Part shown: piece by piece, positions 8,949 to 34,826 of the stretch
Position numbering within the stretch: position 1 is the first letter of the stretch
Layout: the number at the start of each line of letters is the position of its first letter
Program-made: the position numbers and the translations under genes
The notes under the pieces: generated by a model
What the model was told of the DNA's origin: nothing
The model's input: the letters and a program-made list of their open reading frames with translations, nothing else
Database searches by the model: none
Assembly: GCA_938092125.1 (NCBI GenBank)
Contig: CALKMQ010000053.1
Coordinates: 1 to 37,102 of the forward strand
Length of the DNA stretch: 37,102 nucleotides
From: an uncultured bacterium
GTDB lineage: Bacteria > Fidelibacterota > Marinisomatia > Marinisomatales > UBA1611
Reading direction: 5' to 3'

Positions 8949-11900
8949 TTACTTTAAATATGTAAGCTTGCCTTTTACAATTTTCTCTTGCAGTGTGAAA
9001 GTGTAATAATAAACTCCACTTGAAACTAAATCACCATATCTGTTTTTTCCATCCCAAGAAATTTGATGATAGCCCTTTGCACCGCCCATAATTAATTCAT
9101 CAACAATCATTTTCCCAGTAATGTCATAGACATTAAATATCACTAATTGAGGAGTTTCGATGGAAAAATCAAATTTGACTTTACCATTAAATGGGTTTGG
9201 GTATACCGAATGAATCTTGAAACTATTTGGAATATTTATATCAGACTCTTCATTTTTTGAGCTAAGGATATCTGTTCTTCGAATAATTTTAGCATAATAA
9301 TTAGCAAGGTCCTCTTTCCCGGAACTTCTGAGATCAATCCAATGAAGGAGATAGTCTTCGCCACTATATTTGGTTATCCTAGGATTTTTTTGACCATGGT
9401 ATTCAACAGATATTGGAATGCCGTCTATACCTGTGGTTCTTCCAGAACCAGTGACATAGGCAGAACCATAAAGATCAACACCATTTATTAAAAGTGGGTC
9501 ATTATTATAATACCCTCTACCATCCTCCCAAACAATAATATATTCTCCCGCTGCAACTGATTTCACCAACGGCTTTTGCTGGTTGGTTGTATCGAATGTA
9601 AAAAAAACATCGGTTTGATTCATAGTACCTGAGACAAGGTTTATTTCTCTACCAACGACGTTGTAGTCAGTTCCATTTCTGTAATCTTCCCATGCAATAA
9701 ATGCTGTTTGACCTGGTTCATCAATATCAAAAGATATCGCAGATTGGTCATTGTCCTCGATACTTATAGCCAAACCGTTTACGTCCCATTCTTTTTGACC
9801 ATTCCAATCAATTTTTTGGGCATAAATATCACTAAAATTTCCCTCTTGATTCCAAACTGCAAGCACACCACTTGTTTCCGAAATTGATTTAACAGATAAA
9901 TTATTTGCCCCTATGGTCTGGTTACTGAGACTATAGCCACTTGGAGGCCAACCAATAGAAATAGATCCACTGGCATCAACTTTATTATACTTTAATCTTG
10001 ATGCTGGCCAAACTTCTTCTACCCAAAAAACAAGAAAGCCTCCATCAGGCGTTGGAAGTATACTTTGGATATAATCATCTCCATTTGACTCTGCGACCAC
10101 AATACCTCCGGAACTCAGCTGACTTTCTCCATTATTATTGAGCGATTGAAAAAATATATCAAAACCGCTTAAAAAGGATCTGCTCTCTGACCAAAAAACA
10201 CCAACACCCTGAATTCCAAGATCCACCAAATGAGCGTTCCGTTGATCATTCTCAGGACTAAGGGCAACGCCGTTTTGATCCCAAATATTTTCTAGGTTAG
10301 CATCTAATTTATTTATTCTAATCTTTTTCGGAGTTTCAGTGGCATCGAAGGATGCAGTATAGACGCTATTAGATGCGTTTATCATGAACGGACTGGACAA
10401 ATCAATTTCAGTTGAGGAATTATCAGAAAATGAGATTTGATTTCCATTTAAGTGTGATATTTCTCCCGAGCTAATGACATTTGCATAAATTTTCTTACTA
10501 GCTCTGTTATCTTCCCATACTAAAACTATTTTTTCATTATCAATTGGAAATCCAACATTATATTTAATATCTCCATCTAATCCTTTAACCGCAAGCAACC
10601 CACCAGTTTCGAAAAGCGCACTGACACCTTTATAGTAGTTAACTCTTAAATCTATGCTACCACTTCCTTGATCAGCATACACTACAAATACACTATCACT
10701 AGAGCCACTAATGATATTGGGTGCGAATTGATAACCTTCATCACCAGTAACAACAATTGGTATATCACTTTGAGGCTGACCGTTCGAGTTAAAACTTTGG
10801 AATAAGATATCAACATTTGGAAAAACACCTTTCTCCCAAAATATATCGAATCCGCCAATATCATTTGCAGCAAACCTTCCGCTAAAATTAACACCGTCTG
10901 TTAAGTCAACCTGAATACCATCTCCCCATTGCACAGTACCATCTTCATTAATTTTTTGCATAAAAATATCACCATCTACAGAATCAAAACGTAAATCTTT
11001 CCAAGACAGAAATACGTCACCCTCACTGCCTCTTTTCAGCCTTGGCCCAGTTTGAATGGCATCAAACTGAGAAACAGCTTTTGAACTAGTAAAAACAAGT
11101 CCATTTTGATCAACAAACTGAAATAGTATTCTGGCATTATCATCACCATACTTCCAGGTAACAATTGAAGTTGTATTATTTACAAAAGTTGTTCGTGGCC
11201 TTGTTTCCAAACCAGACGTATTAGCAATAGGAATTCCATTTTCTTGAAACAATGGTGACATCGTAATATCTAATCTTTGTCCGTAAATATCAATATTTTC
11301 ACCTTGCCTAGAATCTGACCAACAAATAAAAGCTTCATTGTTTCCAGCATACTCAATGCTTTTGGCTGATTGAGTTCCGCCCTGAACTACAATAGGGACA
11401 CCTATTCCGGGTTCAATGATATTATAATTACTATCAACGTGAGTACCGTAAATATCATCATCAACACCTCCGCGTTTATCTTGCCATGTCACAAAAACGC
11501 CACCAAGGCTATCTGTGCACATGTTTATGGAAATCTGTTGGCCTTGCAACTGAGCTAATGCCACCCCATTAGGATCCATTAATATTGAACCGTCATTGTT
11601 TACATGTTGAATAAATATATCCCCAGCATCATCAAATCTATAGTCAACCCAAGCAATAAACGCTCCGCCATTTCCGTCTTCAATTGAGACAGGGTCTTCC
11701 TGTCTTCCAGGTAAATTTGTAACAACTGCACCTGTTTCACCCCATAACAGATTTCCATTTTTATCTATTTTGTGAGCAAATACGTTACGCATACCAAATC
11801 GAGTGTCTGACCACACAAAAATAGCAGAGCCATCAAGAGAGGGAGCGACTGTTCGGTACCATTCGACATGAACACCTTGCCTTATTGGGGATGCATTATC

Positions 11901-11984
11901 GAAAGTGAATTGTTCAGCTTTCAGAGAAAGAATTGTAAAAAAAAATAATAAAACTCGAGTCTTCATTGATTTGTTAATCTCCAT
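8949..11984 (-). CDS. Large secreted tandem-repeat (propeller-like) protein with T9SS CTD
   Basis: 1011-codon ORF. Signal peptide VLLFFFTILSLKA (alternative ATG at 11966). About 16 copies of a 50-60 aa unit. C-terminus VYPNPFNGK...VYDITGK...SGVYYYTF...LTYLK. Confidence 0.8.
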   Translation of the reverse strand: MEINKSMKTRVLLFFFTILSLKAEQFTFDNASPIRQGVHVEWYRTVAPSLDGSAIFVWSDTRFGMRNVFAHKIDKNGNLLWGETGAVVTNLPGRQEDPVSIEDGNGGAFIAWVDYRFDDAGDIFIQHVNNDGSILMDPNGVALAQLQGQQISINMCTDSLGGVFVTWQDKRGGVDDDIYGTHVDSNYNIIEPGIGVPIVVQGGTQSAKSIEYAGNNEAFICWSDSRQGENIDIYGQRLDITMSPLFQENGIPIANTSGLETRPRTTFVNNTTSIVTWKYGDDNARILFQFVDQNGLVFTSSKAVSQFDAIQTGPRLKRGSEGDVFLSWKDLRFDSVDGDIFMQKINEDGTVQWGDGIQVDLTDGVNFSGRFAANDIGGFDIFWEKGVFPNVDILFQSFNSNGQPQSDIPIVVTGDEGYQFAPNIISGSSDSVFVVYADQGSGSIDLRVNYYKGVSALFETGGLLAVKGLDGDIKYNVGFPIDNEKIVLVWEDNRASKKIYANVISSGEISHLNGNQISFSDNSSTEIDLSSPFMINASNSVYTASFDATETPKKIRINKLDANLENIWDQNGVALSPENDQRNAHLVDLGIQGVGVFWSESRSFLSGFDIFFQSLNNNGESQLSSGGIVVAESNGDDYIQSILPTPDGGFLVFWVEEVWPASRLKYNKVDASGSISIGWPPSGYSLSNQTIGANNLSVKSISETSGVLAVWNQEGNFSDIYAQKIDWNGQKEWDVNGLAISIEDNDQSAISFDIDEPGQTAFIAWEDYRNGTDYNVVGREINLVSGTMNQTDVFFTFDTTNQQKPLVKSVAAGEYIIVWEDGRGYYNNDPLLINGVDLYGSAYVTGSGRTTGIDGIPISVEYHGQKNPRITKYSGEDYLLHWIDLRSSGKEDLANYYAKIIRRTDILSSKNEESDINIPNSFKIHSVYPNPFNGKVKFDFSIETPQLVIFNVYDITGKMIVDELIMGGAKGYHQISWDGKNRYGDLVSSGVYYYTFTLQEKIVKGKLTYLK
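9344..11882 (-). repeat. About 16 protein-level tandem repeats with core [FIV]xWxDxRxxxxDI[YF]xQ[KR][IV]xxxGxxxWxxxG[IV]
   Basis: Units read from the translation, for example VWSDTRFGMRNVFAHKIDKNGNLLWGETGAVV, AWVDYRFDDAGDIFIQHVNNDGS, TWQDKRGGVDDDIYGTHVD, CWSDSRQGENIDIYGQRLD, SWKDLRFDSVDGDIFMQKINEDGTVQWGDGIQV, VWNQEGNFSDIYAQKIDWNGQKEWDVNGLAI, AWEDYRNGTDYNVVGREI, VWEDGRGYYNND. Confidence 0.7.
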
Positions 11985-11991
11985 TGAAATA

Positions 11992-13044
11992 TTAAATATT
12001 TATTTTTGCGGTTTTTAATCCTGATCTAGTACAAATTAAAATGTGCTCATTCCAGAATTCAGTTTTGTATGCATATCCAACATCAAAAATTCCTTTTGCT
12101 TTCGGATTATGAATATCTGAGACATCGTAAAGAGCAATCCCTTTAGAACCGATGCTTAATACGGCGATATCATCTTTTACAGAAATATGATCAACCGTGA
12201 GGCCTTCTGCAAAATGAACAACTATTCCCTCACCTGATTCAATTGACTCTTTTTCGATAAAATATGCTCCGAAATCATCTGCTGATATATATGCTCCATT
12301 ATCGACTAATTTTACTTGTTCTGCATTACCACCTAAGTCAAACCTGGAAAGAAAAACAGGTTCACCTCCAGCATTTTCAATAGATTGATCAAAGATGAGA
12401 TTATAAAATTCTACACCCAATTGGTCTACTGCCATCGCTACCAAATTTTCACCATTACTATCAATACCTAGCGGTTTTCCATCCGTAGAAATTTCTCCTC
12501 CAGCAGATGGCATCCAATTAATTATTTCTAGATTGAATATGGTAGTAGTATCTGACTTATATGTTCCCCATTTGAGACCATCATCATTATCAGCAACATA
12601 CATAGTAAAACCACTTTCACCGTTCGGAAATGAAACATAGTCTTTAGTGCGATCACTCATTATTTCGTTTCTGTAAACAAAATCACTACTATCATCAAAA
12701 AAGAAAACTTTTACTTTTTTGTTTGATTCAGTGACGAATATCAAATTATTGTCTCCATCTCTTTTTACAATTGATATATCATCAAATTCGATGTACGAAC
12801 CATCTTGTGAATAACCCAAATATTCATGCAATACTTGTCCAGTTTCTAAATTCCAAATTTGCACCCCAGCTTGACCAGAAGCAACATATGCTATATTTTC
12901 TTCCACAGACACACTTCTACAAAAGCCTTTAGTATTAAAAACACTTATTTGATCAACAGACCAAAGACCCTCATCATTCGGCTCCATGCATGAGAAAAAC
13001 ATTAGAACGATTAACAAAAAATAAAATTTTTTAATAATTATCAT
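11992..13044 (-). CDS. LVIVD-repeat-like beta-propeller lipoprotein
   Basis: Lipoprotein-type signal FLLIVLMFFSC. Repeated segments resemble the LVIVD repeat: AYVASGQAGVQIWNLETGQ, VAMAVDQLGVEFYNL, AVLSIGSKGIALYDVSDIHNPKAKG. Confidence 0.65.
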   Translation of the reverse strand: MIIIKKFYFLLIVLMFFSCMEPNDEGLWSVDQISVFNTKGFCRSVSVEENIAYVASGQAGVQIWNLETGQVLHEYLGYSQDGSYIEFDDISIVKRDGDNNLIFVTESNKKVKVFFFDDSSDFVYRNEIMSDRTKDYVSFPNGESGFTMYVADNDDGLKWGTYKSDTTTIFNLEIINWMPSAGGEISTDGKPLGIDSNGENLVAMAVDQLGVEFYNLIFDQSIENAGGEPVFLSRFDLGGNAEQVKLVDNGAYISADDFGAYFIEKESIESGEGIVVHFAEGLTVDHISVKDDIAVLSIGSKGIALYDVSDIHNPKAKGIFDVGYAYKTEFWNEHILICTRSGLKTAKINI

Positions 13045-14059
13045 AGGAAAAACTCCACTTAATTTTACACCATAACTGCAATTGTTTAAAACTTTTTAGG
13101 TCACGAACCCAACTATATGATGACCCAGTTTCCCTAGATCGAAAACGAGCACTTAATACGATATCAAGATTTTCTCTTAAACTCTGATTAAACCAAATAT
13201 CTAATTTATTGTCTACATGATCTCTACCAGCATGTAAAACATCATTTACAGCTTCTGCATTGTAGTATCTCAGTTCTTGTCTAAACGAAATACCAAAATT
13301 CTCAACAATGTCTATTGGACTATTTATTTTTATAGGCATATACCATTCAATAGATTCATATGACCGGTCAAAGTCACTTGAAATTGCAGTTTTTGTAAAT
13401 GTCACATTATCGGCGACAGTTCTATTTATTTGGAAAGAAATTGAACCATATTTTTTTATTTTTTTATTTATCCTTATCTTACCATAATAGATATTTAAAT
13501 CAAATTCTGTGAATGGATTATCATAATACCTTTGAAGAAAACCAAAACTAATGATATACCAATTATTTTTATTAATCCTATTTGAAATAGACAGATATTG
13601 ATCATTATCTGTAAAACTACATGGCTTCAAGTCGTTTAAGGACAAATCTCTATCAATATAATGACGAAGGTAATAACTATTAAGGTGCCTTAAAGAGTAT
13701 TTCAGATTTCGGTATGAGCCCCATTTATATTTTACGGATATGATACCCGACCAATAGTCTTTGTTTGAATTATGAACATAATTTGACAAAGCTACGGATG
13801 AATAATAAATTACCTCTTTCTTATTTTTCGTGTATAATGTTTTATCAAAACCAAATTGGATTTTATTAATATAACTATCAAATGTTTTAGATCCGCCAAG
13901 GTATTGTAGATTGGAAGAAGCATCGGAAATTTCTTTTTTAGAAAATCTCATCACATTGTCATCGTAACCACCTTGATAACTCAAACTTAAGTTGATTGGC
14001 GTAGAACCGTAAGAAGTAGAAAAAGTATATAATATGTTAATTATGATTAAAAATCGCAT
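13031..14059 (-). CDS. Predicted outer-membrane beta-barrel protein
   Basis: Signal peptide FLIIINILYTFSTSYG. Tyr/aromatic-rich alternating strands throughout (LSLSYQGGYDDNV, ISVKYKWG, YIISFGFLQRYY, ISFRQELRYY). Aromatic C-terminus KIKWSFSYDNY. ATG overlaps the upstream stop as TAATG. Confidence 0.55.
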   Translation of the reverse strand: MRFLIIINILYTFSTSYGSTPINLSLSYQGGYDDNVMRFSKKEISDASSNLQYLGGSKTFDSYINKIQFGFDKTLYTKNKKEVIYYSSVALSNYVHNSNKDYWSGIISVKYKWGSYRNLKYSLRHLNSYYLRHYIDRDLSLNDLKPCSFTDNDQYLSISNRINKNNWYIISFGFLQRYYDNPFTEFDLNIYYGKIRINKKIKKYGSISFQINRTVADNVTFTKTAISSDFDRSYESIEWYMPIKINSPIDIVENFGISFRQELRYYNAEAVNDVLHAGRDHVDNKLDIWFNQSLRENLDIVLSARFRSRETGSSYSWVRDLKSFKQLQLWCKIKWSFSYDNY

Positions 14060-14937
14060 TAGTATAACATAAAACGCGCAAGGGCTGTTTTTCCCTCATC
14101 AAAAACTTCAATAGAATAATTATGATTACCTTTTGGGACTTTAATTTCACAACTTCGCCATTTTCCTGGAACTTTATCTGAACGGTTTTTAATTTTTGAA
14201 GATCCAGACCTTTCAGTATTGAAAAAGTAAGTACCAACCACCTTTTTTCCACTTTTGACATGAATTCTATAAGATTCCTGTGCTCCCATTTTTTCAGAAA
14301 ACTCTAATCTACTAATAATTCTTAAGATTTTTGGACCATATGCTTCTATCTGCAAAGGTATGTTTTTACTACATTCAAAATATTTTAGATTTTTTCCATC
14401 CAATTCAATATCCACATTATTTTTATGGACCATAGGAACTAATATTTTTTGATTCTTTTTTGGAATTTCAAATTCCTTTGATAATAAACGCAGAAGAACA
14501 GGGTATTTTAAATCTTTATTTTGGAGAATTTCGACTGTATGGTTTCCCTTAGGAATGTTAATAAAATAATTTCCAGAAAAAGTATATCTATGTTTTGGGT
14601 GTTGGACAGAACGCACAGACGATTGGACTTTATATCGATGATTGACGTTAATGGTGTCTTTTTGGTTAAGAACAATAATATAGTTAAAACTATGACTGTT
14701 TTTCTTTTTCTTTAGGACTGGATATCTACTGATAAATTCTGTTCTAGCAGGTCCACTAATCTTGTAAACGAGACCTGTTTGTTCAATTGGGTAATAGACT
14801 CTTCTTTTCGAGTTGATCACAAGAATTTCTTTTTGGTCTCTATTATTTAGAGGTCTCAATAATTTTGCAAACACAGTAGAATCACAAATAACTAAAAAAG
14901 AGATAAAAATTAATTTATAATAGACTATCCGGCTCAT
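14059..14937 (-). CDS. Secreted protein made of two homologous ~125-aa beta-rich domains (internal duplication)
   Basis: Signal peptide LIFISFLVICDSTVFA. The two halves align: YYPIEQTGLVYKISGPARTEFISRY / YFECSKNIPLQIEAYGPKILRIISRL, and YFINIPKGNHTVEIL / CEIKVPKGNHNYSIEV. No family recognised. Confidence 0.7.
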   Translation of the reverse strand: MSRIVYYKLIFISFLVICDSTVFAKLLRPLNNRDQKEILVINSKRRVYYPIEQTGLVYKISGPARTEFISRYPVLKKKKNSHSFNYIIVLNQKDTINVNHRYKVQSSVRSVQHPKHRYTFSGNYFINIPKGNHTVEILQNKDLKYPVLLRLLSKEFEIPKKNQKILVPMVHKNNVDIELDGKNLKYFECSKNIPLQIEAYGPKILRIISRLEFSEKMGAQESYRIHVKSGKKVVGTYFFNTERSGSSKIKNRSDKVPGKWRSCEIKVPKGNHNYSIEVFDEGKTALARFMLY

Positions 14938-16084
14938 GGTTTATGAGATGCTCCTTTATTTCTTTTTTACTTTGATAACCAACAACGAAAACTGAGATAC
15001 ACAAGACAATTAAACATATGAAAGCAACAAGTATGTTATATTTTTCGACAGCATATAAGTTACCTACTCCAATCTCGGGAACTGGTATTGGAGCAAAAGG
15101 CATTCCTAGTTTTTCTGTTAACGACTTAATGTTCAATACATGTAGAACAGGAATATCGTTTTTTGAAAATTTTGATAAAACACCTTCTATTCCACCATCT
15201 TGCAATGACACATTCTGTACATCAGATCTGTTTACAATACCTGCAGGAAGTAATTTTGAATTAAAACTAGTACCCAAGCTTGCTACTCCACCACCAACAT
15301 TTATCATCGCACTATAATTATCTATTTTTGCAAAATTTTTAAAAAGTTCCATTCTATAACTTATATTATCAGCCAGCTTACTTTTTTTAATTAATGGTAA
15401 TCCATGAACTGCAATATTTTCAGTAATAATATTTCTACCTTCAGGGCTAAGCAACCTGCCCATATCATTACGTCCTCCAATAGATGCAGCAATACTTCTA
15501 TTTGGAATTAAATCTTGTTCATAGAGTATTTCTTCCATGTCAAGCCAAGTAAAATCAATATGATTTGCACCCCATTGAGATGCTCCAACAGATGTAATGA
15601 CTACAGGATAGGCGCCTAATGCTTTCAATCCCGTCAAGACTGCAATATTTCCACCTGGCATAGACCCAGTTAAAAGAACTGCGACAGTGTCATTTTTTTC
15701 TATGCCTATTTGAACCATCAAATCAACCATGCCTGCAGAAAAATTTGGATCTAAAGTCGTTAATTTTGCGTCCAAGTCACCTTCGTCAGTGGTTATCAGA
15801 CTGAATGGACTTCCAATTAATCCAGTTTCATTCGGGTCATTTTCATCATCAATAAAAACACTAGATACCATTCTGTAAGATTTCAATGTATTCATTGATT
15901 CTTTCATTAGAGAGGCAGCTTTAACTTTAGTATTGTATGAAGATGATACCTCAATGGTGGTACTGTTTAATGAAATAATAAATGCAACCATTGCTATCAG
16001 AGACAAGATTAAAAGAGTTGATGTTTTTTGAATTGCAGGAATGAATGGCTTCTTTTTATAATTATTCAAAGATTGCACCTCCAA
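14915..16084 (-). CDS. PGA-locus-associated periplasmic protein with N- and C-terminal membrane anchors (likely the 'poly-gamma-glutamate system protein' family)
   Basis: Immediately follows pgsC with overlap. TM segments TSTLLILSLIAMVAFIISL and ILVAFICLIVLCISVFVVGY flank a ~300-aa soluble domain. I recall a conserved family found next to pgsBC in diderms, but the assignment is from memory. Start codon uncertain (TTG at 16084; GTG and TTG alternatives a few codons in). Confidence 0.6.
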   Translation of the reverse strand: MEVQSLNNYKKKPFIPAIQKTSTLLILSLIAMVAFIISLNSTTIEVSSSYNTKVKAASLMKESMNTLKSYRMVSSVFIDDENDPNETGLIGSPFSLITTDEGDLDAKLTTLDPNFSAGMVDLMVQIGIEKNDTVAVLLTGSMPGGNIAVLTGLKALGAYPVVITSVGASQWGANHIDFTWLDMEEILYEQDLIPNRSIAASIGGRNDMGRLLSPEGRNIITENIAVHGLPLIKKSKLADNISYRMELFKNFAKIDNYSAMINVGGGVASLGTSFNSKLLPAGIVNRSDVQNVSLQDGGIEGVLSKFSKNDIPVLHVLNIKSLTEKLGMPFAPIPVPEIGVGNLYAVEKYNILVAFICLIVLCISVFVVGYQSKKEIKEHLINHEPDSLL

Positions 16085-16505
16085 ATAATATCATCACCAT
16101 AAGTTTTACAATGACAGCTGTAAGAATAACAACTGAAATTGTGCGCGTCACACCTTGTCTGTCCATCCAATTTGCAATAAGACCAGGTATAATATTACCT
16201 ATAACAGCAACACTTTTTATACTTTCTGAATCAACATAAAACGTTCTGGATAAATAGCCGAAGAAAAAACCAAGTATAAGTGCAAGTACAATCCTTCTTT
16301 TTCCATATAAAAACATAATTTTGCTTAAAATTTTTATTATCCCCAAAACCAAAATAGCGACCAAAAAAGTTGAGAACACTTGGACTGGTTGATGTAAAAA
16401 TAAAGCGATGTAACCTGGCACAATAATCCCACCAGCCGTGACGCCAAGAGCTTCTGATAATACTAAGCTTAGAATAATTCCTAACCCAATGCTAATTTCA
16501 ACCAT
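16062..16505 (-). CDS. pgsC: Poly-gamma-glutamate biosynthesis membrane protein PgsC/CapC
   Basis: 147 aa, all hydrophobic. Blocks match remembered B. subtilis PgsC: GGIIVPGYIALFLHQPVQV (VPAGLVVPGYLALVFNQPVFI), LYGKRRIVLALILG (LYGRRKFAAMLITG), IGNIIPGLIANWMDRQGVTRT (IGIIVPGLIANTIQKQGLTIT). ATG overlaps the pgsB stop (ATGGTTGA). Confidence 0.92.
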   Translation of the reverse strand: MVEISIGLGIILSLVLSEALGVTAGGIIVPGYIALFLHQPVQVFSTFLVAILVLGIIKILSKIMFLYGKRRIVLALILGFFFGYLSRTFYVDSESIKSVAVIGNIIPGLIANWMDRQGVTRTISVVILTAVIVKLMVMILFGGAIFE

Positions 16506-17679
16506 TAATTCTATTCCTGGCTAAATCTTCTAATATCTCTTGCCCAACCCCTACTTGGTTACCAATTGCGTAAATAAGTGAATCATCAGGCAATTTTAAT
16601 ATCGCCTTACTAACGACGTCAGCCTTTTCATCAATTGAGAATATTATAACAATTGTTTCAGGTGAGTGGTGTTTAAGCTTGTTTATTTTTGCTTCAATCT
16701 TATCACCTCTTACAATTAAATATTCAGGTCGAATTTCTTCGAATGTAAGTTCTAACATTTGTTTTGTGCGCATCGGACGGTCATCTCTTGAATTAAAAAA
16801 TACCGCTGTTGCACTTTTGGTGGGATACCTATCAATTACAAATTTCCATATTTGCAATGTTGATACTGGGTCATTTGCTGCCATTCCATTTACAAACTGT
16901 AATGAACCTTTTTGCCCAATTAATTTCCAAACAATCAAAGCACCTAAATCTGGTTGAACCTGGTGCATACCTCCTATTGCTATATCTCTATCTACCCCTA
17001 ATTTTTCACACACATCCAATGCGATTGCTATATTTTGAGGATGCTCGATGTAACTAAAATTATCTATATATTCATTTGACAATGAATTTTCATCTGATAT
17101 AATGAAATCAGAGTTATTGTCGTATGTAACTTTTTTTATGATATTTTTGTGTTTTTGCTCAGCAGTCACAAGAACACCACCAACAGGAATTGAATTACAT
17201 AATGATTTTACAACATCCTCTTCTGTCGGCCCCATTTCATCTAAGTGGTCTGGTCTGGCATTGGTAATAACCCCTATATCTGATTTTACCATCTGATGTT
17301 CTGAAATCCACTGATATTGAGGTTGAACTGCCATACACTCCATTACAACCACATCTGGTTTTTCATCAGAAAAATATTTAAGTAATCTTACTTGTTCACC
17401 AATCGAGGGTTTCCTTAGTCTATGGATAATTCTATCAATTCCTTTAGAATCAATTACCCTAGGGGCCGTACCTGTAGTTTTAGCAAATGTACGTTTTCCT
17501 CCAGCTCTTAACCCTGCCGCTATAAGCCGGGTAACACTTGATTTTCCTCTGGTGCCGTTTACATGTATTCTAATTGGAATACCAGATAAGCTTATTTGAT
17601 GGTATCTAAATTCTAGTAGACCAGCAATAATTAGAAGAGTAGCGAGAAAACCAAGTATCAATAATGGCGAAATCAGCAT
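16498..17679 (-). CDS. pgsB: Poly-gamma-glutamate synthase PgsB/CapB (Mur-ligase-like amide ligase)
   Basis: N-terminal TM, then IRIHVNGTRGKSSVTRL (B. subtilis VRVNINGIRGKSTVTRL), PSIGEQ, VMECMAVQPQYQ (VSECMAVNPDYQ), GVITNARPDHLDEMGPT, FVNGMAANDPVSTLQIW (FVNGFAANDASSTLNIW), NSRDDRPMRT, IGNQVG. Confidence 0.95.
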   Translation of the reverse strand: MLISPLLILGFLATLLIIAGLLEFRYHQISLSGIPIRIHVNGTRGKSSVTRLIAAGLRAGGKRTFAKTTGTAPRVIDSKGIDRIIHRLRKPSIGEQVRLLKYFSDEKPDVVVMECMAVQPQYQWISEHQMVKSDIGVITNARPDHLDEMGPTEEDVVKSLCNSIPVGGVLVTAEQKHKNIIKKVTYDNNSDFIISDENSLSNEYIDNFSYIEHPQNIAIALDVCEKLGVDRDIAIGGMHQVQPDLGALIVWKLIGQKGSLQFVNGMAANDPVSTLQIWKFVIDRYPTKSATAVFFNSRDDRPMRTKQMLELTFEEIRPEYLIVRGDKIEAKINKLKHHSPETIVIIFSIDEKADVVSKAILKLPDDSLIYAIGNQVGVGQEILEDLARNRING

Positions 17680-17700: not shown

Positions 17701-20700
17701 TTACTGATCGTAACCCATTACAATTTGAATAAGCCTTACCATATCCAAAATATTCACCATACCATCAGAATTTATATCTGCTAGATATGGGTTAAAATTT
17801 GTTTGATCTACAACGATATGGTCTATGAGAATAAGAAGATCATTCACATCAATCATTCCATCAGTATTTAAATCACCATCTAAACGTATTTCACTTCCAC
17901 GAGTGGTAATTAAAATCGCAGTTCCATCTGACAGAGGCATAGCTGCATCAGCATATGAATTATTAAAAGTATACTGTAGTCCTCGCTTCATCGTATGATC
18001 TTCAATACCTATGGTGCAATAGTTACCATGGATTTGACTCCAACTATAACTTCCATTGGAATCATTATTGAAATCTAAATATTGCATCAATATTTCACCA
18101 TCACCAGTAGGAGTAGTGTAATACATGGGGTCTTTTAAAATCACTTGAAATGTTTCAGGAGTATTATTTTGAAAAGTACGCACTCTAGACCATTGAACAA
18201 TAAACAGTTTATTAATTTCGTCATACCAAGTATAAACTCTGCCTGAATTTGTTAATTGTAAATCATCCCAAAAAACAGCGACCATTTTCCCTGGCCCTCC
18301 AGCACCTGGTAAAGGATAATTCCTAAATGAGCTTAAATCTGTTGCACCAAAGGATATCCACCCATTTGAACAAATACTTAAACTTTCATATTCTTGGCCG
18401 TAAAATCTAAAATTAAAAGGTAGGCTAACTGTCTGGACATCATCTCCATTATCGCCATTATCACTTAGAGAGTTTAAATACGTCCCATTTCCATCGTATC
18501 TAGCATCTATCTCAATCCAATCAAAAGATGGTGCAATAAGATAGTCTGTATCTCCACTATCATATATATAGTAGCCATGTTCATCTGGACCCATTGGATC
18601 ATTTTCCGACGGAATACCAATTTGAATTGTAATAACCGAAGAGGCTGAGTATCCATCATCAGAACTCAAAGAGACAATTAAATTAGCGATGGTTCCAGGA
18701 ATTACATCTTCTTCAGCGCGGATAATGAATGAATCCCCACTGTTTGAGCTAGAGCTATAGGAACCTGGATTGATTGATGACCAAGTAGCGGAATTATCAA
18801 CAATCTCTATTGCACTTGATGATGAGGTTATTTGACCTGTAATATTTTGTGCTACAGTGGACCCTATATTGTGTAATTGAATATGAACATTTGATATTTC
18901 CCCTGCTGACAAGACATCTTGACTACTACCAGAAACATCAATATTCGATGCATAAATATTTTTACCTGAAACAGAAAACTCTACATAACCTGTAGACAAA
19001 TAATCGTTGCTATTAGTGAGCGTTAGCAACAGTTTAATATTTGAATTATCATGCACATCGTTATTTACGCTAAATGTAAATGGGGACGAATCGTTACTAA
19101 CAATATCTCCTGATGTTAGATCTCCGTAAAAGAATGTATCATTTATAATTGTAACATTAGAATTTTCAGAAGAAAGAGTACCACTTATTTGGGAAGCATT
19201 TGCATTACCATAATTTGATACAGGAATAATCAGGTCTACTATTTCTCCAGAATTTATTTCTCCATCTCCGTTACCAATTGAAGAACCAGTTCCATTTTCA
19301 ATTAGGGATATGTTATCACCAAAAATATTTACACTGGCACCTGGATTGTAAATTTGAAAAGAGCTTTGATATGGGTAATGATTTTTTTTAGTAACTGTTA
19401 CAAGAATTTCGCCCTCCTGAACAATTGGAATCATTAATCGAATTGATCCGTTGGAGTCACTATAACCAGATTCTAAAACAGAACCTTCTTTATAAATTGT
19501 TACCCAAGCATCTTGCACAGGGTTGCCGCCACTGTTGGTAAGGGAAAAGTCTATAAAATTTGTACCTTTTGTTAAAGAATACAAATGCGATACATTTAGC
19601 ATTTCAGGATATTCTGTCCACATTTGAAGGGAGGCATCTCCCATGAGGCTATTCCAATGAGTGAAGGTAGAAACATATTGATTTGGGTTTGTAGGGTATG
19701 CTCGCGAAAGCCAAAGCTTACCAGCCATAAGAGCACCTCCAACTGAGTTTATATTTTCAACGATCGCGCCATGATAAAAACCCATATCAACCATATTATT
19801 AAACATAGTATGTGTACCTAGTGTTGCAGTACCGATACAAGCAACTGCAGCTCTTGGGTTTGAAGCAGTGCCAGCTCTTAAAAACGACTCAGATAATGAT
19901 TCTTCAGAACCGAAGGAACCTGTTCCACAGGTAATTACAGTGGCAATTGGAAGCATAAAACCATTATTTGAATTGCCCGGGTCATCATTTGTATAACCAC
20001 TTACACCGTAAAAACCTCTGTAATTAAAAAAGCCTACTCCATCATTAAGATTACTAGTCATCTGGCCAGGAAAATCCCCGGAATAAACAGTTCTTATGTC
20101 TTCATATCCATGATTTTGGAGAACTTCTTTAATATTATTATTTGTAATAATACATGAAACGCCTGAGGTAGAAGGGTCCCCAACTAAGCATGCTCTTTTG
20201 AACCAATTCTCACCCATATACGGGTTTGATTCATAATTAACAGTTTTACTTATAATAGTTTGTAAATGGCTTTGACTATCAAAAGAAAGCCGACCAACAA
20301 ATAATTCCGGGAATAAATCATTTCCAACTAATGTGGCATAAGGATGATCACCTTCTCCATTGTAACCACTCCAATTTTCAAAATGCGTTGGTATATCATA
20401 ACTACCTTCAGCATCGCCAACGATAGTAACATATTCTGGGGGATTGTCCCAACCTTCGTAAGCAGTTTCAATATAATCTTTAAGGTTATTGGAGTTATTT
20501 ACAATATTTGAACTAGATATATAGTTCACTTCATACCCCATTCTTTTTTTCCAATCCATAAGTACTTCAACCGTACCTAAAAGGTTTCCAATATTGTTTG
20601 GAAGAACATACAAAATCGAAGGTCTCTGATAAGGAATATTTTCACGATTTAAAGAAGAATAATTTGCAATCATTGACTCGTATAATGGCTCAAAAGCTCT

Positions 20701-21312
20701 TGACCGCTTTGAAGGATGAAACAACACTGCTTCACGATTACCATTTTCAACTAATTCTACTTCTATATCAATAAATTCTTCTAAGACCTTTTGATCAGGG
20801 TGATATCGAAATGGCGAAACTGTCAATGTAAGCAATGATAATTCTCGCATAGCCATCGGTTCAGATATCAAAGCAATATTAGCTGGATAATAATTATCAA
20901 TATCAGAATAGTTTGGTTCGGAGACTACGACTTCATTTGCGTTATTATCCCAAGAACCTTTTGCAACTAGATCAACATCATTAATAAAACGTGAAGAACT
21001 ATAGGTTACTTCAATTGAATAACTTTTATTTGGGTCAACTGCGATAAATGTTGTACTAGATGGCAAATCTGGCATTCCTGGCTCAGAAATTTGGCTAGAA
21101 TTTGAAAAAACCGGCTTTTTAAGAACTTTACCATTAACATCATTTTTGGATTCAATAATATATTCTGGCATAGTGTAGGTGATGAGACCGTTACCATTGT
21201 TTTTGACTTCATACTTAAACCCCGGATCTTTTGAAATAGACATTGGGCTTTCAGCACCAAATAATGTGTAGGAAAAAAATATAAACGATATAACTTTGAT
21301 TTTCATTTTCAA
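17701..21312 (-). CDS. Peptidase C25 (gingipain-like) family protein with propeptide-like N-domain, CARDB/Ig-like repeats, NIDO-like domain and C-terminal dockerin
   Basis: The likely real start is the ATG at 21306 (MKIKVISFIFFSYTLFGA). C25 blocks: YVTIVGD, ELFVGRLS, FFNYRGFYGVSGY, LPIATVITCGTGSF, SESFLRAG, LMGDASL. Propeptide-like LTLTVSPFRYHP. The C-terminus has two DxNxDGxxxxxD segments instead of a CTD. Confidence 0.9.
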   Translation of the reverse strand: MKMKIKVISFIFFSYTLFGAESPMSISKDPGFKYEVKNNGNGLITYTMPEYIIESKNDVNGKVLKKPVFSNSSQISEPGMPDLPSSTTFIAVDPNKSYSIEVTYSSSRFINDVDLVAKGSWDNNANEVVVSEPNYSDIDNYYPANIALISEPMAMRELSLLTLTVSPFRYHPDQKVLEEFIDIEVELVENGNREAVLFHPSKRSRAFEPLYESMIANYSSLNRENIPYQRPSILYVLPNNIGNLLGTVEVLMDWKKRMGYEVNYISSSNIVNNSNNLKDYIETAYEGWDNPPEYVTIVGDAEGSYDIPTHFENWSGYNGEGDHPYATLVGNDLFPELFVGRLSFDSQSHLQTIISKTVNYESNPYMGENWFKRACLVGDPSTSGVSCIITNNNIKEVLQNHGYEDIRTVYSGDFPGQMTSNLNDGVGFFNYRGFYGVSGYTNDDPGNSNNGFMLPIATVITCGTGSFGSEESLSESFLRAGTASNPRAAVACIGTATLGTHTMFNNMVDMGFYHGAIVENINSVGGALMAGKLWLSRAYPTNPNQYVSTFTHWNSLMGDASLQMWTEYPEMLNVSHLYSLTKGTNFIDFSLTNSGGNPVQDAWVTIYKEGSVLESGYSDSNGSIRLMIPIVQEGEILVTVTKKNHYPYQSSFQIYNPGASVNIFGDNISLIENGTGSSIGNGDGEINSGEIVDLIIPVSNYGNANASQISGTLSSENSNVTIINDTFFYGDLTSGDIVSNDSSPFTFSVNNDVHDNSNIKLLLTLTNSNDYLSTGYVEFSVSGKNIYASNIDVSGSSQDVLSAGEISNVHIQLHNIGSTVAQNITGQITSSSSAIEIVDNSATWSSINPGSYSSSSNSGDSFIIRAEEDVIPGTIANLIVSLSSDDGYSASSVITIQIGIPSENDPMGPDEHGYYIYDSGDTDYLIAPSFDWIEIDARYDGNGTYLNSLSDNGDNGDDVQTVSLPFNFRFYGQEYESLSICSNGWISFGATDLSSFRNYPLPGAGGPGKMVAVFWDDLQLTNSGRVYTWYDEINKLFIVQWSRVRTFQNNTPETFQVILKDPMYYTTPTGDGEILMQYLDFNNDSNGSYSWSQIHGNYCTIGIEDHTMKRGLQYTFNNSYADAAMPLSDGTAILITTRGSEIRLDGDLNTDGMIDVNDLLILIDHIVVDQTNFNPYLADINSDGMVNILDMVRLIQIVMGYDQ
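17713..17880 (-). other. Type I dockerin-like module (two Ca-binding loop/helix segments)
   Basis: DGDLNTDGMIDVNDLLILIDHIV ... ADINSDGMVNILDMVRLIQIVMG. This is a duplicated ~22-aa segment with the D-x-N-x-D-G-x-(I/V)-x-x-x-D pattern of dockerins. Confidence 0.75.
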
Positions 21313-21319
21313 ATCTCTT

Positions 21320-21967
21320 TTAATTAAATATTAAATAATGAAATATGTTAGGAAAATAAAAACTTCCAACAAAGGTTACAAGAGAGGCGATTGCTAGATA
21401 TGGCGCAAACGGCAATGCTCTGTTTCTATCAAAACCTTTAATAACAGCTATAATTATCCAAACGATTAAACTTAAAAATGATGCGCCAAAAAGTGTAAGT
21501 GCCATTCTCATTGGTCCTAGCCAAATACCTAAGACAAAGCCAAGTTGAATATCTCCATAGCCCATCCCTTGTCTTTTTGTAATAAGAAAAATAAGCCAAA
21601 TCAATGCTAGAGGTATTATGGAACCAACAACTACACCATAAAATGCAGTCTTATAATTAAATGTCCCATTTACAACACCATATAGAACTATTATAGACCC
21701 AACGACAATGAATAGAAGCGGAATTTGAAAAGTGTGAAAATCTACCCAGCTAATTGCAAAAAGCAATCCTGCAAGCAAGCTAAAAATTACAGCTTCCATT
21801 GGCGGCAATGCATAAGTACCCCACAGCCACGATAATGCGCAAAATGCTTCCATTTTGTAATCATTTTTTCTAATAAAAAATCCCTCGACATTCAACCAAT
21901 TAATAGAAAATTTTAATGACCTTGCGTAAAGATAACTGATGCATAATATTAAAAAGACATTTAACAT
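21320..21967 (-). CDS. pilD: Prepilin peptidase (A24 family), short form without the N-terminal methyltransferase/Cys-rich domain
   Basis: Polytopic membrane protein. First catalytic Asp context AISWVDFHTFQIP; second in RQGMGYGDIQLGFVLG (GxGD). ATG at 21967 lies 5 nt after the pilC stop; an alternative ATG is at 21853. At most 215 aa, with no CxxC pairs upstream of the peptidase core. Confidence 0.85.
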   Translation of the reverse strand: MLNVFLILCISYLYARSLKFSINWLNVEGFFIRKNDYKMEAFCALSWLWGTYALPPMEAVIFSLLAGLLFAISWVDFHTFQIPLLFIVVGSIIVLYGVVNGTFNYKTAFYGVVVGSIIPLALIWLIFLITKRQGMGYGDIQLGFVLGIWLGPMRMALTLFGASFLSLIVWIIIAVIKGFDRNRALPFAPYLAIASLVTFVGSFYFPNIFHYLIFN

Positions 21968-21972
21968 TTTTA

Positions 21973-23220
21973 TTATAAACCCGACTGTAATGCAGATCCA
22001 AGATGAAAGACTGGTAGATAAGTTAAAACAACCATAAGAGCAATAACAGCGCCTACCATCAATATTAGAAGAGGCTCAATCAAAGTAGTCATCCGTTCTA
22101 CCAAAGCGTTCACCTGCTTGTGATAATAATCAGCTGCTCTATCAAGTAAATCATCAATTTCCCCAGTTTCTTCACCTGTAGAAACAAGTTGAAGCAAAAT
22201 TGAGGGGAAAACTTCAGTTCTTCGAAGCGCTGTTGAGATATTGTAACCATCTCTAATATAATTTGACGCATCCTGAACTGCTTTTTCGTATACTTTGTTT
22301 CCAACTACTTTTTTTAATAGCACCATTGCTTCAAGAACAGGGACACCAGCACCAATCAAGATTCCAAAGGTTTTACAAAATTTATTTAGTATGGATTGAT
22401 TAAGCAAACTTCCAAACACTGGAATTTTCAATTTAACAGTATCAATGATGAATCCTCCACGCTGGGTTTTTGAAATTAAGAAAAGCACCAAAAACACAAC
22501 AATAAAGTTAAAAAACATAAAACCTAAATTTTCAGTTACCCAGGCACTCGCATCCATCATTTTTTTAGTTGCTCCAGGGAGCGATGCCCCAAGTTGAGAA
22601 TAGACTTCAGAAAACTTTGGAATTATCCAAATAAACATTGCTAATACCATACACCCTAGAAAAATGACCATAAAAATCGGATAAGTCATCGCCCCTTTTA
22701 CTTTTCTTCGAGTATCATCAAGATTTTCAAGGTATGAAGCCAACTGATCTAATATCTCATTTAAGTTTCCACTGACTTCACCAGCTTTTGTCATCGCAAC
22801 AAAAAGGTTATTAAAAACACCTGGATGACGAGATAATGATTCAGAAAGGTTTAATCCTTTACGGATACTAGAGCCTACTTCAGTAAGTATTTTTTTAAAC
22901 TTATTATGCTTTTCTTCAATAGAAAGAGCGCTTATAGCCCTTTCGAGAGTTAATCCAGCACTAAACATTGTAGCCAGCTGCCTAGTAAAGAACACAAGAT
23001 TTGCTAAAGGCACTCTATTTTTTAGTCTTTCGAAAGTCAGATTAATTTCATCAAGAAATGGCCCTAGAAAATCAAAAGTAGTATCAACCTCTTTTAAGGT
23101 AATAACGATCTGCCCATTCGCAGTGAGCTTTTGAATGGCTAAATCCATTGATTCAGCACGAATATCACCCTCAGACCTATTGCCTTCATCATTTTTAACT
23201 AAGTAATGGAATACGCTCAC
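21973..23220 (-). CDS. pilC: Type IV pilus platform protein PilC (GspF family)
   Basis: N-terminus SVFHYLVKNDEGNRSEGDIRAES is typical of PilC. Two T2SSF-like halves (FTRQLATMFSAGLTLERAI; FCKTFGILIGAGVPVLEAM) and three TM segments. GTG start overlaps the pilB TAG by 1 nt. Confidence 0.9.
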   Translation of the reverse strand: MSVFHYLVKNDEGNRSEGDIRAESMDLAIQKLTANGQIVITLKEVDTTFDFLGPFLDEINLTFERLKNRVPLANLVFFTRQLATMFSAGLTLERAISALSIEEKHNKFKKILTEVGSSIRKGLNLSESLSRHPGVFNNLFVAMTKAGEVSGNLNEILDQLASYLENLDDTRRKVKGAMTYPIFMVIFLGCMVLAMFIWIIPKFSEVYSQLGASLPGATKKMMDASAWVTENLGFMFFNFIVVFLVLFLISKTQRGGFIIDTVKLKIPVFGSLLNQSILNKFCKTFGILIGAGVPVLEAMVLLKKVVGNKVYEKAVQDASNYIRDGYNISTALRRTEVFPSILLQLVSTGEETGEIDDLLDRAADYYHKQVNALVERMTTLIEPLLILMVGAVIALMVVLTYLPVFHLGSALQSGL

Positions 23221-24941
23221 TATAAATCCTCGACAGTTGACCTCAACACTTCCTCAACACTAGTAGTGCCATCTAGGACTCTTTCATTTCCAGCGTCCCT
23301 AAGTGTTACCATCCCATTTTTAATAGCAGCCTGCCTTATTTCGTCTTCATTTGCACTATCAAAAACAAGTTTTCTTAATTCTCTTGCCATAGGAATCATT
23401 TCAAAAATAGCTGTTCTTCCTCTGTAGCCAGTATTTCTGCAATCGGTGCAACCTTTTGCTTTATTAAGCTCTCCTTTCACATCTTTAGTTTCTAATCCAA
23501 TCAATGCAAGTTCATCAGCCGTTGGAGCATATGATTCTTTACATTTATCACACAACTTTCTAACCAATCTTTGAGCCATAACTAAGTTTAGGCAAGAACC
23601 TACCAAAAATGGAGCAATTCCAATATCTAGCAATCTTGTTAAAGTACCCGGAGCATCATTAGCGTGAACAGTTGAAAAGACCAAGTGGCCTGTCAAAGAA
23701 AATTTAACAGCAATATCTGCTGTCTCCTCATCTCTAATCTCACCAATTAATAATACATCTGGATCTTGACGCAAGATTGATCGCAACGAAGAACCAAAGG
23801 TAAGACCGATATCTTCAAAAATCTGAACTTGGGTAATACCATCGAGTTGATACTCGACAGGATCTTCGACAGTAATAATATTTGTTTTTTCATCTTTTAT
23901 CTGCTTAAGTGCAGCATATAAAGAAGTTGATTTTCCAGAACCTGTCGGTCCCGATACAACGACCATGCCATAAGGTTGACTAATGACTTTTTTAAAAACG
24001 CTTAGATTTTTTTTAGGAAAGCCCAAGGTTGTAAGATTAAAATCAAATCCACTTTTGTCTAGCAACCTCATTACAATTTTTTCCCCATGCACTGTAGGTA
24101 AAATAGACACACGAACATCTAAGTCTTTTGCTGCTGTCTTGATAGAGAACCTACCATCTTGCGGTAATCTTTTTTCTGCGATATTAAGTTTTGACAATAT
24201 TTTTATTCTTGTAACTAGGCCGCTAAGAGAAGTAGACGGCGGAGTCATAATAATTTGAAGAACACCATCAATACGTATTCTCACATTTACTTTGCTCTCT
24301 TGCGGCTCAACGTGGATATCTGTAGCGCGCTCTTTTATTGCTTCCTGTAGAATTAAATTAACTAGCTTTACTATTGGAGCATCTTCATCGCTAGCATTCT
24401 CTGGGGATAGGTCTACCTCTTCTGCTGAATCCTCATCTCCTGAAATAACAGTAATACCTTGTATAGCCTCTTCAACTTTACCTGCTTTTGTAATTTCACC
24501 ATAAAGTTGATCCATCGCTTTATTAATTAAATCAAAACCAGCGACAACAATGTCGGGCTCTAAACCAGTTAAACGTTTCACTGAATCTATCGTGGCAATA
24601 TCTTCAGGATCTTCCATCACTATCGTGACAGCACTATCTGATCTTTTTACCGCTAAAACTGAATTAGATCTAGCAAAATCTTCAGGTATTAAACCAACTG
24701 CATCTTGATCTGCTTCCAAAAGCAAAAAATTATCTGCTTTACGATATCCCATTTGCATTGAGTAAGCTGTAATAAAATCATCTTCGTCAATATACCCCAT
24801 AGAAATCAAAACTTGCCCTAATTTTTCATTAGTCTTTTTTTGTTCAGCTAACGCACTATTTAATTTGCTTTCATCAATTTTTGAAGCATGAATTAAAATT
24901 TCGCCAATTTTTTGAAATTGCGGATTAAAATCACTAGCCAT
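23220..24941 (-). CDS. pilB: Type IV pilus assembly ATPase PilB (GspE family) with MshEN/T2SSE_N-type N-domain
   Basis: Walker A VSGPTGSGKST, Asp/His boxes, Walker B DVLLIGEIRD, and tetracysteine CDKC...CTDCRNTGYRGR. I place the start at the ATG 24939-24941 (MASDF...), which overlaps the upstream TAA as TAATG. The ORF track extends to a GTG at 24950. Confidence 0.93.
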   Translation of the reverse strand: MASDFNPQFQKIGEILIHASKIDESKLNSALAEQKKTNEKLGQVLISMGYIDEDDFITAYSMQMGYRKADNFLLLEADQDAVGLIPEDFARSNSVLAVKRSDSAVTIVMEDPEDIATIDSVKRLTGLEPDIVVAGFDLINKAMDQLYGEITKAGKVEEAIQGITVISGDEDSAEEVDLSPENASDEDAPIVKLVNLILQEAIKERATDIHVEPQESKVNVRIRIDGVLQIIMTPPSTSLSGLVTRIKILSKLNIAEKRLPQDGRFSIKTAAKDLDVRVSILPTVHGEKIVMRLLDKSGFDFNLTTLGFPKKNLSVFKKVISQPYGMVVVSGPTGSGKSTSLYAALKQIKDEKTNIITVEDPVEYQLDGITQVQIFEDIGLTFGSSLRSILRQDPDVLLIGEIRDEETADIAVKFSLTGHLVFSTVHANDAPGTLTRLLDIGIAPFLVGSCLNLVMAQRLVRKLCDKCKESYAPTADELALIGLETKDVKGELNKAKGCTDCRNTGYRGRTAIFEMIPMARELRKLVFDSANEDEIRQAAIKNGMVTLRDAGNERVLDGTTSVEEVLRSTVEDL

Positions 24942-27211: not shown

Positions 27212-27223
27212 ATAAGGCTCCTT

Positions 27224-28726: not shown

Positions 28727-28732
28727 CTTTCG

Positions 28733-29272: not shown

Positions 29273-29274
29273 AA

Positions 29275-29844: not shown

Positions 29845-29845
29845 A

Positions 29846-31488: not shown

Positions 31489-31509
31489 TAGCCGTCTCCT
31501 TTCAACGAG

Positions 31510-34824: not shown

Positions 34825-34826
34825 TA

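Follow-up and report, generated by a model that had tools for sequence, protein, structure and literature searches.

How could poly-γ-glutamate (PGA) cross the outer membrane of a diderm bacterium? This question is raised by a gene cluster on contig CALKMQ010000053.1 of an uncultured bacterium of the Marinimicrobia/SAR406 lineage, now named Fidelibacterota. The whole stretch of 37,102 nucleotides that we analysed is referred to here as the window. At positions 13031–17679, on the minus strand, the PGA synthase genes pgsB and pgsC are followed by genes for a membrane-anchored protein (PgsW), a tandem β-sandwich protein and a predicted outer-membrane β-barrel. The original prediction, made from the letters of this DNA, had proposed these five genes as a PGA synthesis and export module. 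The five minus-strand open reading frames (ORFs) are present at these positions, and the assumption that the host is diderm holds as well, the window encoding a secretin, PilMNO, type II secretion proteins (T2SS-E/F) and several type IX secretion system (T9SS) sorting tails. The PGA model of CapsuleFinder consists of CapABCDE only, with no outer-membrane component, and its authors remark that, in diderms, passage through the outer membrane generally requires a further protein (PMC5542703). As had been supposed, no outer-membrane component or route for PGA is described in the literature that we searched. Our analysis suggests that the cassette is probably a variant of the PGA system in the Fibrobacteres–Chlorobi–Bacteroidetes (FCB) group, one whose synthase genes come with an envelope-crossing module of their own.

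The synthase core

The first two genes encode a PGA synthase of the known type. PgsB (16498–17679, 393 aa), the synthase amide ligase, scored 415.7 bits against the TIGR04012 equivalog (cutoff, 222.7) and 51 bits against Mur_ligase_M (PF08245). Its translation contains the P-loop NGTRGKSS, and it is ∼35% identical to CapB of Bacillus anthracis in a tblastn comparison. PgsC (16062–16505, 147 aa), the membrane subunit of the synthase, is encoded with an 8-nt overlap with pgsB. It scored 123 bits against the TIGR04011 equivalog (cutoff, 96.45) and 111.8 bits against PF14102 (CapC), and is 39% identical to CapC of pXO2. Both proteins thus exceed curated equivalog cutoffs, and their identities are as unambiguous as had been claimed. 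The predicted absence of PgsA/CapA and of CapD/GGT was also upheld: neither the PGA_cap/CapA family nor the CapD/GGT family had a match among the window ORFs scanned. CapA- or GGT-like genes were likewise not found among the annotated recurrent flank families of the 80 genome loci described below.

The third gene, pgsW (14915–16084, 389 aa), had been described as encoding a protein with a transmembrane helix at each end. The helices were confirmed. The protein is not an orphan: with 288.7 bits against TIGR04332 (cutoff, 100), it is by sequence a member of this known and curated, but uncharacterised, family of ‘poly-gamma-glutamate system proteins’. Homologs already carry this name in NCBI and JGI annotations, and NCBI uses the gene symbol pgsW. 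In a cross-phylum alignment, PgsW shows a periplasmic domain of ∼300 aa flanked by one transmembrane helix at the N-terminus and another at the C-terminus, and both helices are kept in 19 cross-phylum sequences and in nearly all of ∼115 family members. Its gene lies directly downstream of pgsC in the window and in ∼140 loci. A comparison of the PgsW profile with CapA of pXO2 detected no similarity (hhalign probability, 0.1%), and a sequence-profile search against PDB gave no meaningful match.

Two details of PgsW may be added. The gene has two in-frame TTG starts, one at 16084 (389 aa, 23-nt overlap with pgsC) and one five codons later at 16069 (384 aa, 8-nt overlap). Public annotations mostly give the homologs a length of 384 aa, in agreement with the latter start. 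A conserved PDxL tail at the C-terminus was considered as a marker of systems bearing the outer-membrane module and was rejected, because the tail does not track with the module.

The order of these genes resembles that of the Bacillus PgsBCA(E)/CapBCADE systems (capBCADE of pXO2), in which homologous PgsB and PgsC also come first in the operon and are followed by a membrane-anchored extracytoplasmic partner. The window cassette differs from them in that it contains no CapA/PgsA, to which PgsW is unrelated by sequence, no CapD/GGT and no CapE, and in that it adds three or four proteins of the diderm envelope that have no Bacillus counterpart, namely the β-sandwich protein, the barrel, an LVIVD lipoprotein and a C25-like protein.

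Two unannotated protein families downstream of pgsW

The PgsBCW core is already known to database curators; the families of the next two proteins are not annotated. The gene for the tandem β-sandwich protein (14059–14937, 292 aa) overlaps pgsW by 23 nt (14915–14937) and is joined to the barrel gene (13031–14059, 342 aa) by a shared TAATG at 14059, so that both couplings described in the original prediction are borne out by the sequence. Neither family had a Pfam, NCBIfam or PDB sequence match, including the members from Bacteroidales, Melioribacteraceae and LCP-89, and members of both are called ‘hypothetical protein’ wherever they are named. The FCB-type PGA system would thus bring with it two or three new protein families.

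The 292-aa protein carries a Sec signal peptide and is predicted to be periplasmic. Its AlphaFold2 model is all-β (pLDDT, 80.7), with two domains resembling carbohydrate-binding modules (CBMs). Foldseek matched the model to tandem CBM22 domains (CBM22-CBM22), PNGase F and the jelly-rolls of Cry toxin domain III, with low template-modelling (TM) scores because of the domain orientation. The proposal that the protein is built from two homologous β-rich domains was confirmed by a profile–profile comparison of its halves, using 19 phylum-diverse sequences (hhalign probability, 99.8%; E, 5e-28; 127 columns); BLASTP aligned the halves weakly (E, 0.01) and only at the PKGNH motif. In one metagenome-assembled genome (MAG) labelled Polaribacter (locus L071, 11737–13002), the β-sandwich protein is longer (421 aa) and carries one more copy of the repeat at its N-terminus, so that it has three domains instead of two.

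The 342-aa protein, which has a signal peptide, is confidently predicted to form a 14-strand outer-membrane β-barrel, in line with the Tyr-rich barrel that had been proposed (29 of the 322 mature residues are Tyr). The AlphaFold2 model (pLDDT, 88.2; pTM, 0.83) consists of a signal helix and 14 long β-strands, and outer-membrane barrels were the only PDB structures among the Foldseek matches returned. The top matches were the 14-strand monomeric porins CymA of Klebsiella oxytoca and OmpG of Escherichia coli (E, 1e-11 to 1e-8; TM score, 0.5–0.6), and the exopolysaccharide-exporter barrels PgaA and AlgE were also significant. CymA and OmpG share the strand number with the 342-aa protein, but identity is 9–11%, there is no family-level match, and the signature motifs of the barrel family are absent from them. 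Furthermore, they are sugar uptake channels and are not encoded with a polymer synthase. The barrel family comprises 420 representative clusters in a profile search and is marked by the motifs YDxNxLxxS, YLRxYxDxD, YNxxFTEYD and DPxHxGR. When the less hydrophobic face of each predicted strand was taken as the lumen, a crude estimate made from strand register instead of coordinates, the lumen-facing strand residues comprised 23 K/R and 10 D/E (net +13). Such a net-positive lumen fits a channel for a polyanion.

Conservation of the cassette across phyla

Within Marinimicrobia, the entire region (>15 kb) is syntenic, with the pilus genes at one end and the T9SS cargo genes at the other. Because such synteny cannot separate functional linkage from shared ancestry, we turned to loci from other phyla. 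A motif specific to the barrel, [YFL][YH]NxxFTEYD, was scanned against 185,579 species genomes (one genome per GTDB species), which yielded 80 loci. These were scored with hidden Markov models (HMMs) built from the window proteins, and those with 4.2 kb or more of upstream DNA before the barrel gene were regarded as informative (n = 64). The loci come from MAGs labelled LCP-89, Electryoneota, Zixibacteria, Calditrichota, KSB1, Gemmatimonadota, Bacteroidota (several orders), Ignavibacteriota, Chlorobi, Cloacimonadota and Neomarinimicrobiota, and from a few bins labelled Alphaproteobacteria. The carriers thus represent about eleven phyla, and all of the unfamiliar labels that we checked belong to the FCB group.

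Genes for PgsB, PgsC, PgsW and a homolog of the 292-aa protein are present in 58 of the 64 informative loci, in all but two of them in this order, on the same strand and upstream of the barrel gene. In those two (L059 and L071), the order is permuted with all parts still adjacent. Four further loci are complete once frameshifts and start-codon problems are allowed for, bringing the number to 62 of 64. The original prediction had asked for co-occurrence of the β-sandwich and barrel genes with pgsBC in related genomes, and it was found far beyond the host phylum. The two exceptions are an orphan barrel gene (L021) and a 17-kb contig on which the barrel gene is accompanied by the lipoprotein and C25-like genes described below and no pgs gene is present (L079). 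The median gaps between successive genes, from pgsB through pgsC, pgsW and the 292-aa gene to the barrel gene, are −4, −8, 17.5 and 7 nt, and 85–96% of the junctions measure 60 nt or less. The β-sandwich gene directly follows pgsW, with a gap of at most 60 nt, in 63 of 70 loci. The neighbours outside the cassette are unrelated housekeeping genes that vary by clade. Therefore, it is the cassette itself that constitutes the conserved unit.

Accessory lipoprotein and C25-like protein

Two further genes extend this unit in the host lineage. The original prediction had drawn its boundaries around five genes; these five remain, but in this lineage the conserved unit also includes a lipoprotein gene downstream and a gene for a C25-like protein upstream. 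The lipoprotein gene (11992–13044, minus strand, 350 aa), which overlaps the barrel gene by 14 nt, encodes a β-propeller of the LVIVD type. Orthologs in other phyla matched Pfam LVIVD (PF08309) at 86–102 bits (cutoff, 20.2). The window copy gave only faint Pfam matches, and its orthology was established with a family HMM of window and locus sequences (E down to 1e-128). The lipobox Cys is kept in 39 of 43 members, mostly in the form …SC|GKPxDPES; the window copy reads FFSC|MEPNDEG. Among 68 loci with downstream DNA, 35 have the LVIVD gene directly after the barrel gene, with a median gap of 34 nt.

The C25-like gene (17701–21312, minus strand) encodes a gingipain-like protein of 1203 aa, in which a propeptide domain and a dockerin-like C-terminus accompany the C25 domain (Peptidase_C25, 157 bits; Propeptide_C25; Dockerin_1), and pgsB starts 21 nt after its end. 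In Bacteroidota, Ignavibacteriota, Gemmatimonadota, KSB1, Cloacimonadota and Marinimicrobia, genes for orthologs of ∼1250 aa with T9SS tails immediately precede pgsB or immediately follow the LVIVD gene. When 48 loci with sequence on both sides were scored, 23 had both the LVIVD gene and an adjacent C25-like gene, 21 had neither, 4 had LVIVD only, and none had the C25-like gene only. The two genes therefore form a co-varying accessory sub-module. The barrel, LVIVD and C25-like genes also occur as a block of their own in L079 (6309–13219), and this trio is placed upstream of pgsBCW and the 292-aa gene in L059 and L071, which suggests that the surface trio is a separable sub-module.

An assignment of the C25-like protein as the T9SS sortase PorU (NF033707) was rejected, because the window copy had no match and its orthologs reached at most 74 bits (cutoff, 420). 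Alignment to RgpB (His211/Cys244) showed that the Cys is kept, and that the position of His211 is occupied by Phe in the window protein and by E, W, F or Y in 26 relatives. The FCB C25-like proteins that we examined have NYRG[EWFY] in place of the gingipain motif NYTGH, in cassette-linked and unlinked copies alike (loci L034–L083); one outlier, in L005, keeps the His. From its sequence, this subfamily may use another general base or be non-proteolytic.

Some loci have additional genes beside these. In 17 loci of the Bacteroidota type, a membrane acyltransferase-like gene (HGSNAT_cat/DUF1624-type, 41 bits) has a median offset that places it just after the LVIVD gene, and in L079 such a gene sits just upstream of the barrel gene instead (4403–5938). 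It is followed in 11 loci by an unannotated gene of 429 aa. The acyltransferase-like gene may represent a lineage-specific modification step or mere local synteny.

A candidate route for PGA across the envelope

Taken from the family assignments, the predicted folds, the gene order kept across phyla and the two families without a curated model, the following route can be proposed. We infer each transport step from fold, charge and gene linkage, by analogy with the synthase-dependent exopolysaccharide systems. As members of their families, PgsB, an ATP-dependent amide ligase, and PgsC would polymerise glutamate at the inner membrane. PgsW, anchored in this membrane by a helix at both ends, would fill the place of CapA/PgsA and receive the chain in the periplasm. 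The fold and gene position of the tandem β-sandwich protein suggest that it may bind or guide the polymer across the periplasm, much as polysaccharides would be handled by BcsB with its jelly-roll domains or by alginate-system proteins of the periplasm. The 14-strand barrel, with its positive lumen and near-obligate linkage to the synthase genes, would then be the exit pore in the outer membrane. At the cell surface, the LVIVD lipoprotein and the C25-like protein might, more speculatively, take part in handling, retention or processing of the polymer.

The synthase-dependent systems, namely those for alginate (Alg8/44-AlgK-AlgE), poly-N-acetylglucosamine (PgaABCD), cellulose (BcsABC) and Pel, likewise encode an inner-membrane polymerase, a periplasmic polymer handler and an outer-membrane β-barrel in the synthase operon. 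They also resemble the cassette in that the pore for the anionic polymer is electropositive and that an outer-membrane lipoprotein partner is often present. The differences are that the polymer here is a polyamide made by an amide-ligase synthase, and that there is no sequence homology to any component. Neither a tetratricopeptide-repeat (TPR) scaffold nor a glycosyltransferase family was found in any cassette protein, and no cyclic di-GMP receptor was detected. The synthase-dependent layout that had been proposed thus stands as an operon-like arrangement of synthase, periplasmic protein and outer-membrane barrel, and the cassette would work like these systems without being a member of them. 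The strand numbers also differ: AlgE has 18 strands, PgaA and BcsC have 16, and the barrel described here has 14.

PgsBCW loci without the outer-membrane module

Several observations weigh against a dedicated export route, one of which is that PgsBCW also occurs without the module. In the diderm Cetobacterium somerae (Fusobacteriota; plasmid NZ_CP143320, locus L085, 395103–413924), the order is ggt … AstE-like – pgsB – pgsC – pgsW, followed by unrelated genes. This locus shares the PgsBCW core with the window, and its PgsW (28% identical) is also anchored at both ends. However, it ends at pgsW, contains no β-sandwich, barrel, LVIVD or C25-like gene, and has ggt, an AstE/AspA-like hydrolase and a TRAP (tripartite ATP-independent periplasmic) permease as neighbours. 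A metagenome scan anchored on PgsW motifs gave 80 loci, 40 of which have at least 2.3 kb downstream of pgsW. Among these 40, both the 292-aa and the 342-aa genes are absent from 23 and present in 16, nearly always together with LVIVD and C25-like genes, and a single locus has a barrel-like gene only. In this sample, the two genes therefore appear or vanish together, except in the barrel-only case. In the loci without the module (for example, L085, L099, L151, L157, L158, L163 and L166), the operon usually ends at pgsW, and zinc hydrolases of the AstE/AspA type, a DctM/TRAP permease and C69 or M28 peptidases recur nearby, with ggt in Cetobacterium. These loci look like a combined synthesis and turnover system. 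Judged from gene content, at least two architectures are built on PgsBCW, and the window carries the FCB-type one with the outer-membrane module.

Furthermore, Fusobacterium nucleatum is presented as the one Gram-negative bacterium shown to make PGA (Candela 2009, as cited in PMC3815933), and it is a relative of Cetobacterium within the Fusobacteriota, which lack the module. E. coli carrying pgsBCA alone has PGA in the culture supernatant (PMC3815934), and hence a dedicated pore is not strictly needed for release. The original prediction had reasoned that PGA of a diderm must cross the outer membrane; a candidate module for this step is present, but the notion that a dedicated exporter is indispensable is weakened by the Fusobacteriota and by E. 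coli. It also counts against the proposed route that all carriers of the module belong to one superphylum, so that deep vertical inheritance contributes to the conservation, that the charge of the lumen is a rough figure, and that the boundaries of transcription cannot be set from the window sequence: in a promoter and terminator scan of the window, the counts equalled the shuffle expectation, and operon ends are not inferable from them.

Alternative roles of the module

The 292-aa protein, the barrel and the LVIVD lipoprotein could belong to the PGA system and yet not conduct the polymer; they would instead serve to anchor it, to retain it or to organise it at the outer membrane, and the C25-like protein would be an enzyme of transpeptidation or trimming. 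Gene linkage supports this role as much as it supports export. In addition, the β-sandwich domains resemble binding modules more than parts of a channel, PGA can exit diderm cells without a dedicated pore, and the cassette contains no enzyme of the GGT/CapD type, while a C25-like protein that retains its Cys co-varies with the LVIVD lipoprotein. Precedents exist in Wzi for group 1 capsules and in the CapD-mediated anchoring of B. anthracis. However, the closest structural matches of the 14-strand barrel with its polar, positive lumen are open monomeric channels, CymA and OmpG, and the canonical catalytic His of gingipains is missing from the C25-like proteins. The five-gene form without LVIVD or C25-like genes is also common (21 of the 48 informative loci), which implies that the barrel and the β-sandwich protein have a role of their own as a pair. 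We regard a purely anchoring role as possible but unlikely.

A more elaborate version, which we consider rather improbable, would assign the barrel, the LVIVD lipoprotein and the C25-like protein of T9SS-bearing FCB bacteria to a machine for attachment at the surface, as counterparts of PorV/PorQ, PorZ and PorU, with PGA as the anionic partner instead of anionic lipopolysaccharide. The C25-like protein would then act as a transpeptidase that covalently tethers PGA to the surface, or that tethers secreted T9SS cargo onto a PGA coat. Like the PorU/PorV/PorZ/PorQ attachment complex, the cassette combines a large protein of the C25 family, a 14-strand barrel and a β-propeller in T9SS-bearing phyla, and weak sub-threshold matches to the PorU, PorU2 and PorZ models were obtained. 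However, the scores are far below the cutoffs (PorU, 74 versus 420 bits; PorZ, 14–22 bits), the barrel has no PorV match, and the propeller here is a lipoprotein, not a protein with a T9SS C-terminal sorting domain. The resemblance is therefore one of parts only. If this arrangement did exist, it would represent a novel mode of surface-layer construction in bacteria, linked to an outer-membrane translocon dedicated to a polymer that is not a polysaccharide.

The product itself could differ from a free extracellular capsule. PgsB and PgsC are only 35–39% identical to the Bacillus enzymes, PgsW is unrelated to CapA by sequence, and PGA in FCB members (Cloacimonadota) has been inferred from annotation only (PMC8542988). 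The enzymes might thus make another γ-glutamyl product, such as a periplasmic, lipid-linked or protein-linked polymer, which would be served by the downstream proteins. However, both enzymes lie far above equivalog cutoffs that were built for PGA synthases, and an outer-membrane barrel encoded in the operon speaks for delivery of the product to the surface. We give this explanation a small chance of being right.

There is only a small chance, in our view, that the barrel module works in the opposite direction, as a specific porin and binding-protein set that imports glutamate, peptides or PGA fragments to supply or recycle the polymer. The nearest structural matches, CymA and OmpG, do serve in uptake, and the window is rich in secreted peptidases (C25 and M14). 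In the other pgsBCW class, the synthase is paired with AstE/AspA-like, TRAP/DctM, C69 and M28 genes, and therefore PGA turnover genes do travel with the synthase elsewhere. However, the peptidase neighbours of the window are not conserved beyond Marinimicrobia, except for the C25-like protein, the conserved cassette contains no inner-membrane importer, and nearly all loci show the barrel gene in translational coupling downstream of the synthase genes.

Finally, the idea that the 292-, 342- and 350-aa genes are mere syntenic passengers with no functional tie to PGA synthesis could appeal to the dense gene packing of the whole window and to the long Marinimicrobia synteny across unrelated type IV pilus and peptidase genes, but it is close to refuted, as the flanks change across phyla while five genes keep their order with near-zero gaps, the rearranged cassettes of L059 and L071 keep all parts adjacent, and the barrel family lies away from pgs genes in just 2 of 64 loci.

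Envelope crossing of PGA by a module encoded with its synthase therefore remains the reading that we favour. PGA acts as a capsule and as a virulence factor, is a constituent of the biofilm matrix and is used as an industrial polymer, and its biology has been worked out almost wholly in the single-membraned Bacillus. The cassette provides the first concrete and testable candidates for its passage across the outer membrane, namely for a binder in the periplasm, for a pore of 14 strands and for an accompanying lipoprotein. Its carriers include abundant ocean Marinimicrobia, gut and digester Bacteroidales and Cloacimonadota, and PGA coats may be widespread and overlooked in environmental bacteria and in marine organic matter. 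Should the module truly be an exporter, its transfer to Gram-negative production strains would be possible, and the logic of synthase-dependent secretion would extend from polysaccharides to a polyamide.

Genomic surroundings of the cassette

The cassette is part of a single dense minus-strand gene array that occupies positions 2242–37102 of the window, and tight packing is therefore not peculiar to its five genes. Within pgsB, antisense on the plus strand (17076–17103), there is an extended σ70 consensus (TTGACA-16 nt-TG-TATAAT) with 12 of 12 positions matching, which may not be the promoter type of this phylum.

Directly upstream of the C25-like gene, a complete cluster of the type IV pilus or type II secretion system (T2SS) type is encoded on the minus strand (21320–37102). 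It includes N_methyl pilin-like proteins, a PilT-like ATPase, PilM/N/O, a secretin, a PilB-type ATPase with MshEN, PilC/T2SS-F and a prepilin peptidase, and a 756-aa Big_1/MG4 protein is inserted within it. Other Marinimicrobia share this synteny between the cluster and the PGA cassette; other phyla do not.

Downstream of the cassette (3442–11984, minus strand) lies an array of T9SS cargo proteins that is conserved in Marinimicrobia. It contains a 1011-aa protein with a T9SS tail as its sole known domain, a second C25-like protein and an M14 zinc carboxypeptidase with CarboxypepD_reg. PGA hydrolases such as PghP have a carboxypeptidase-like fold, and by analogy the M14 protein of this array could act on PGA.

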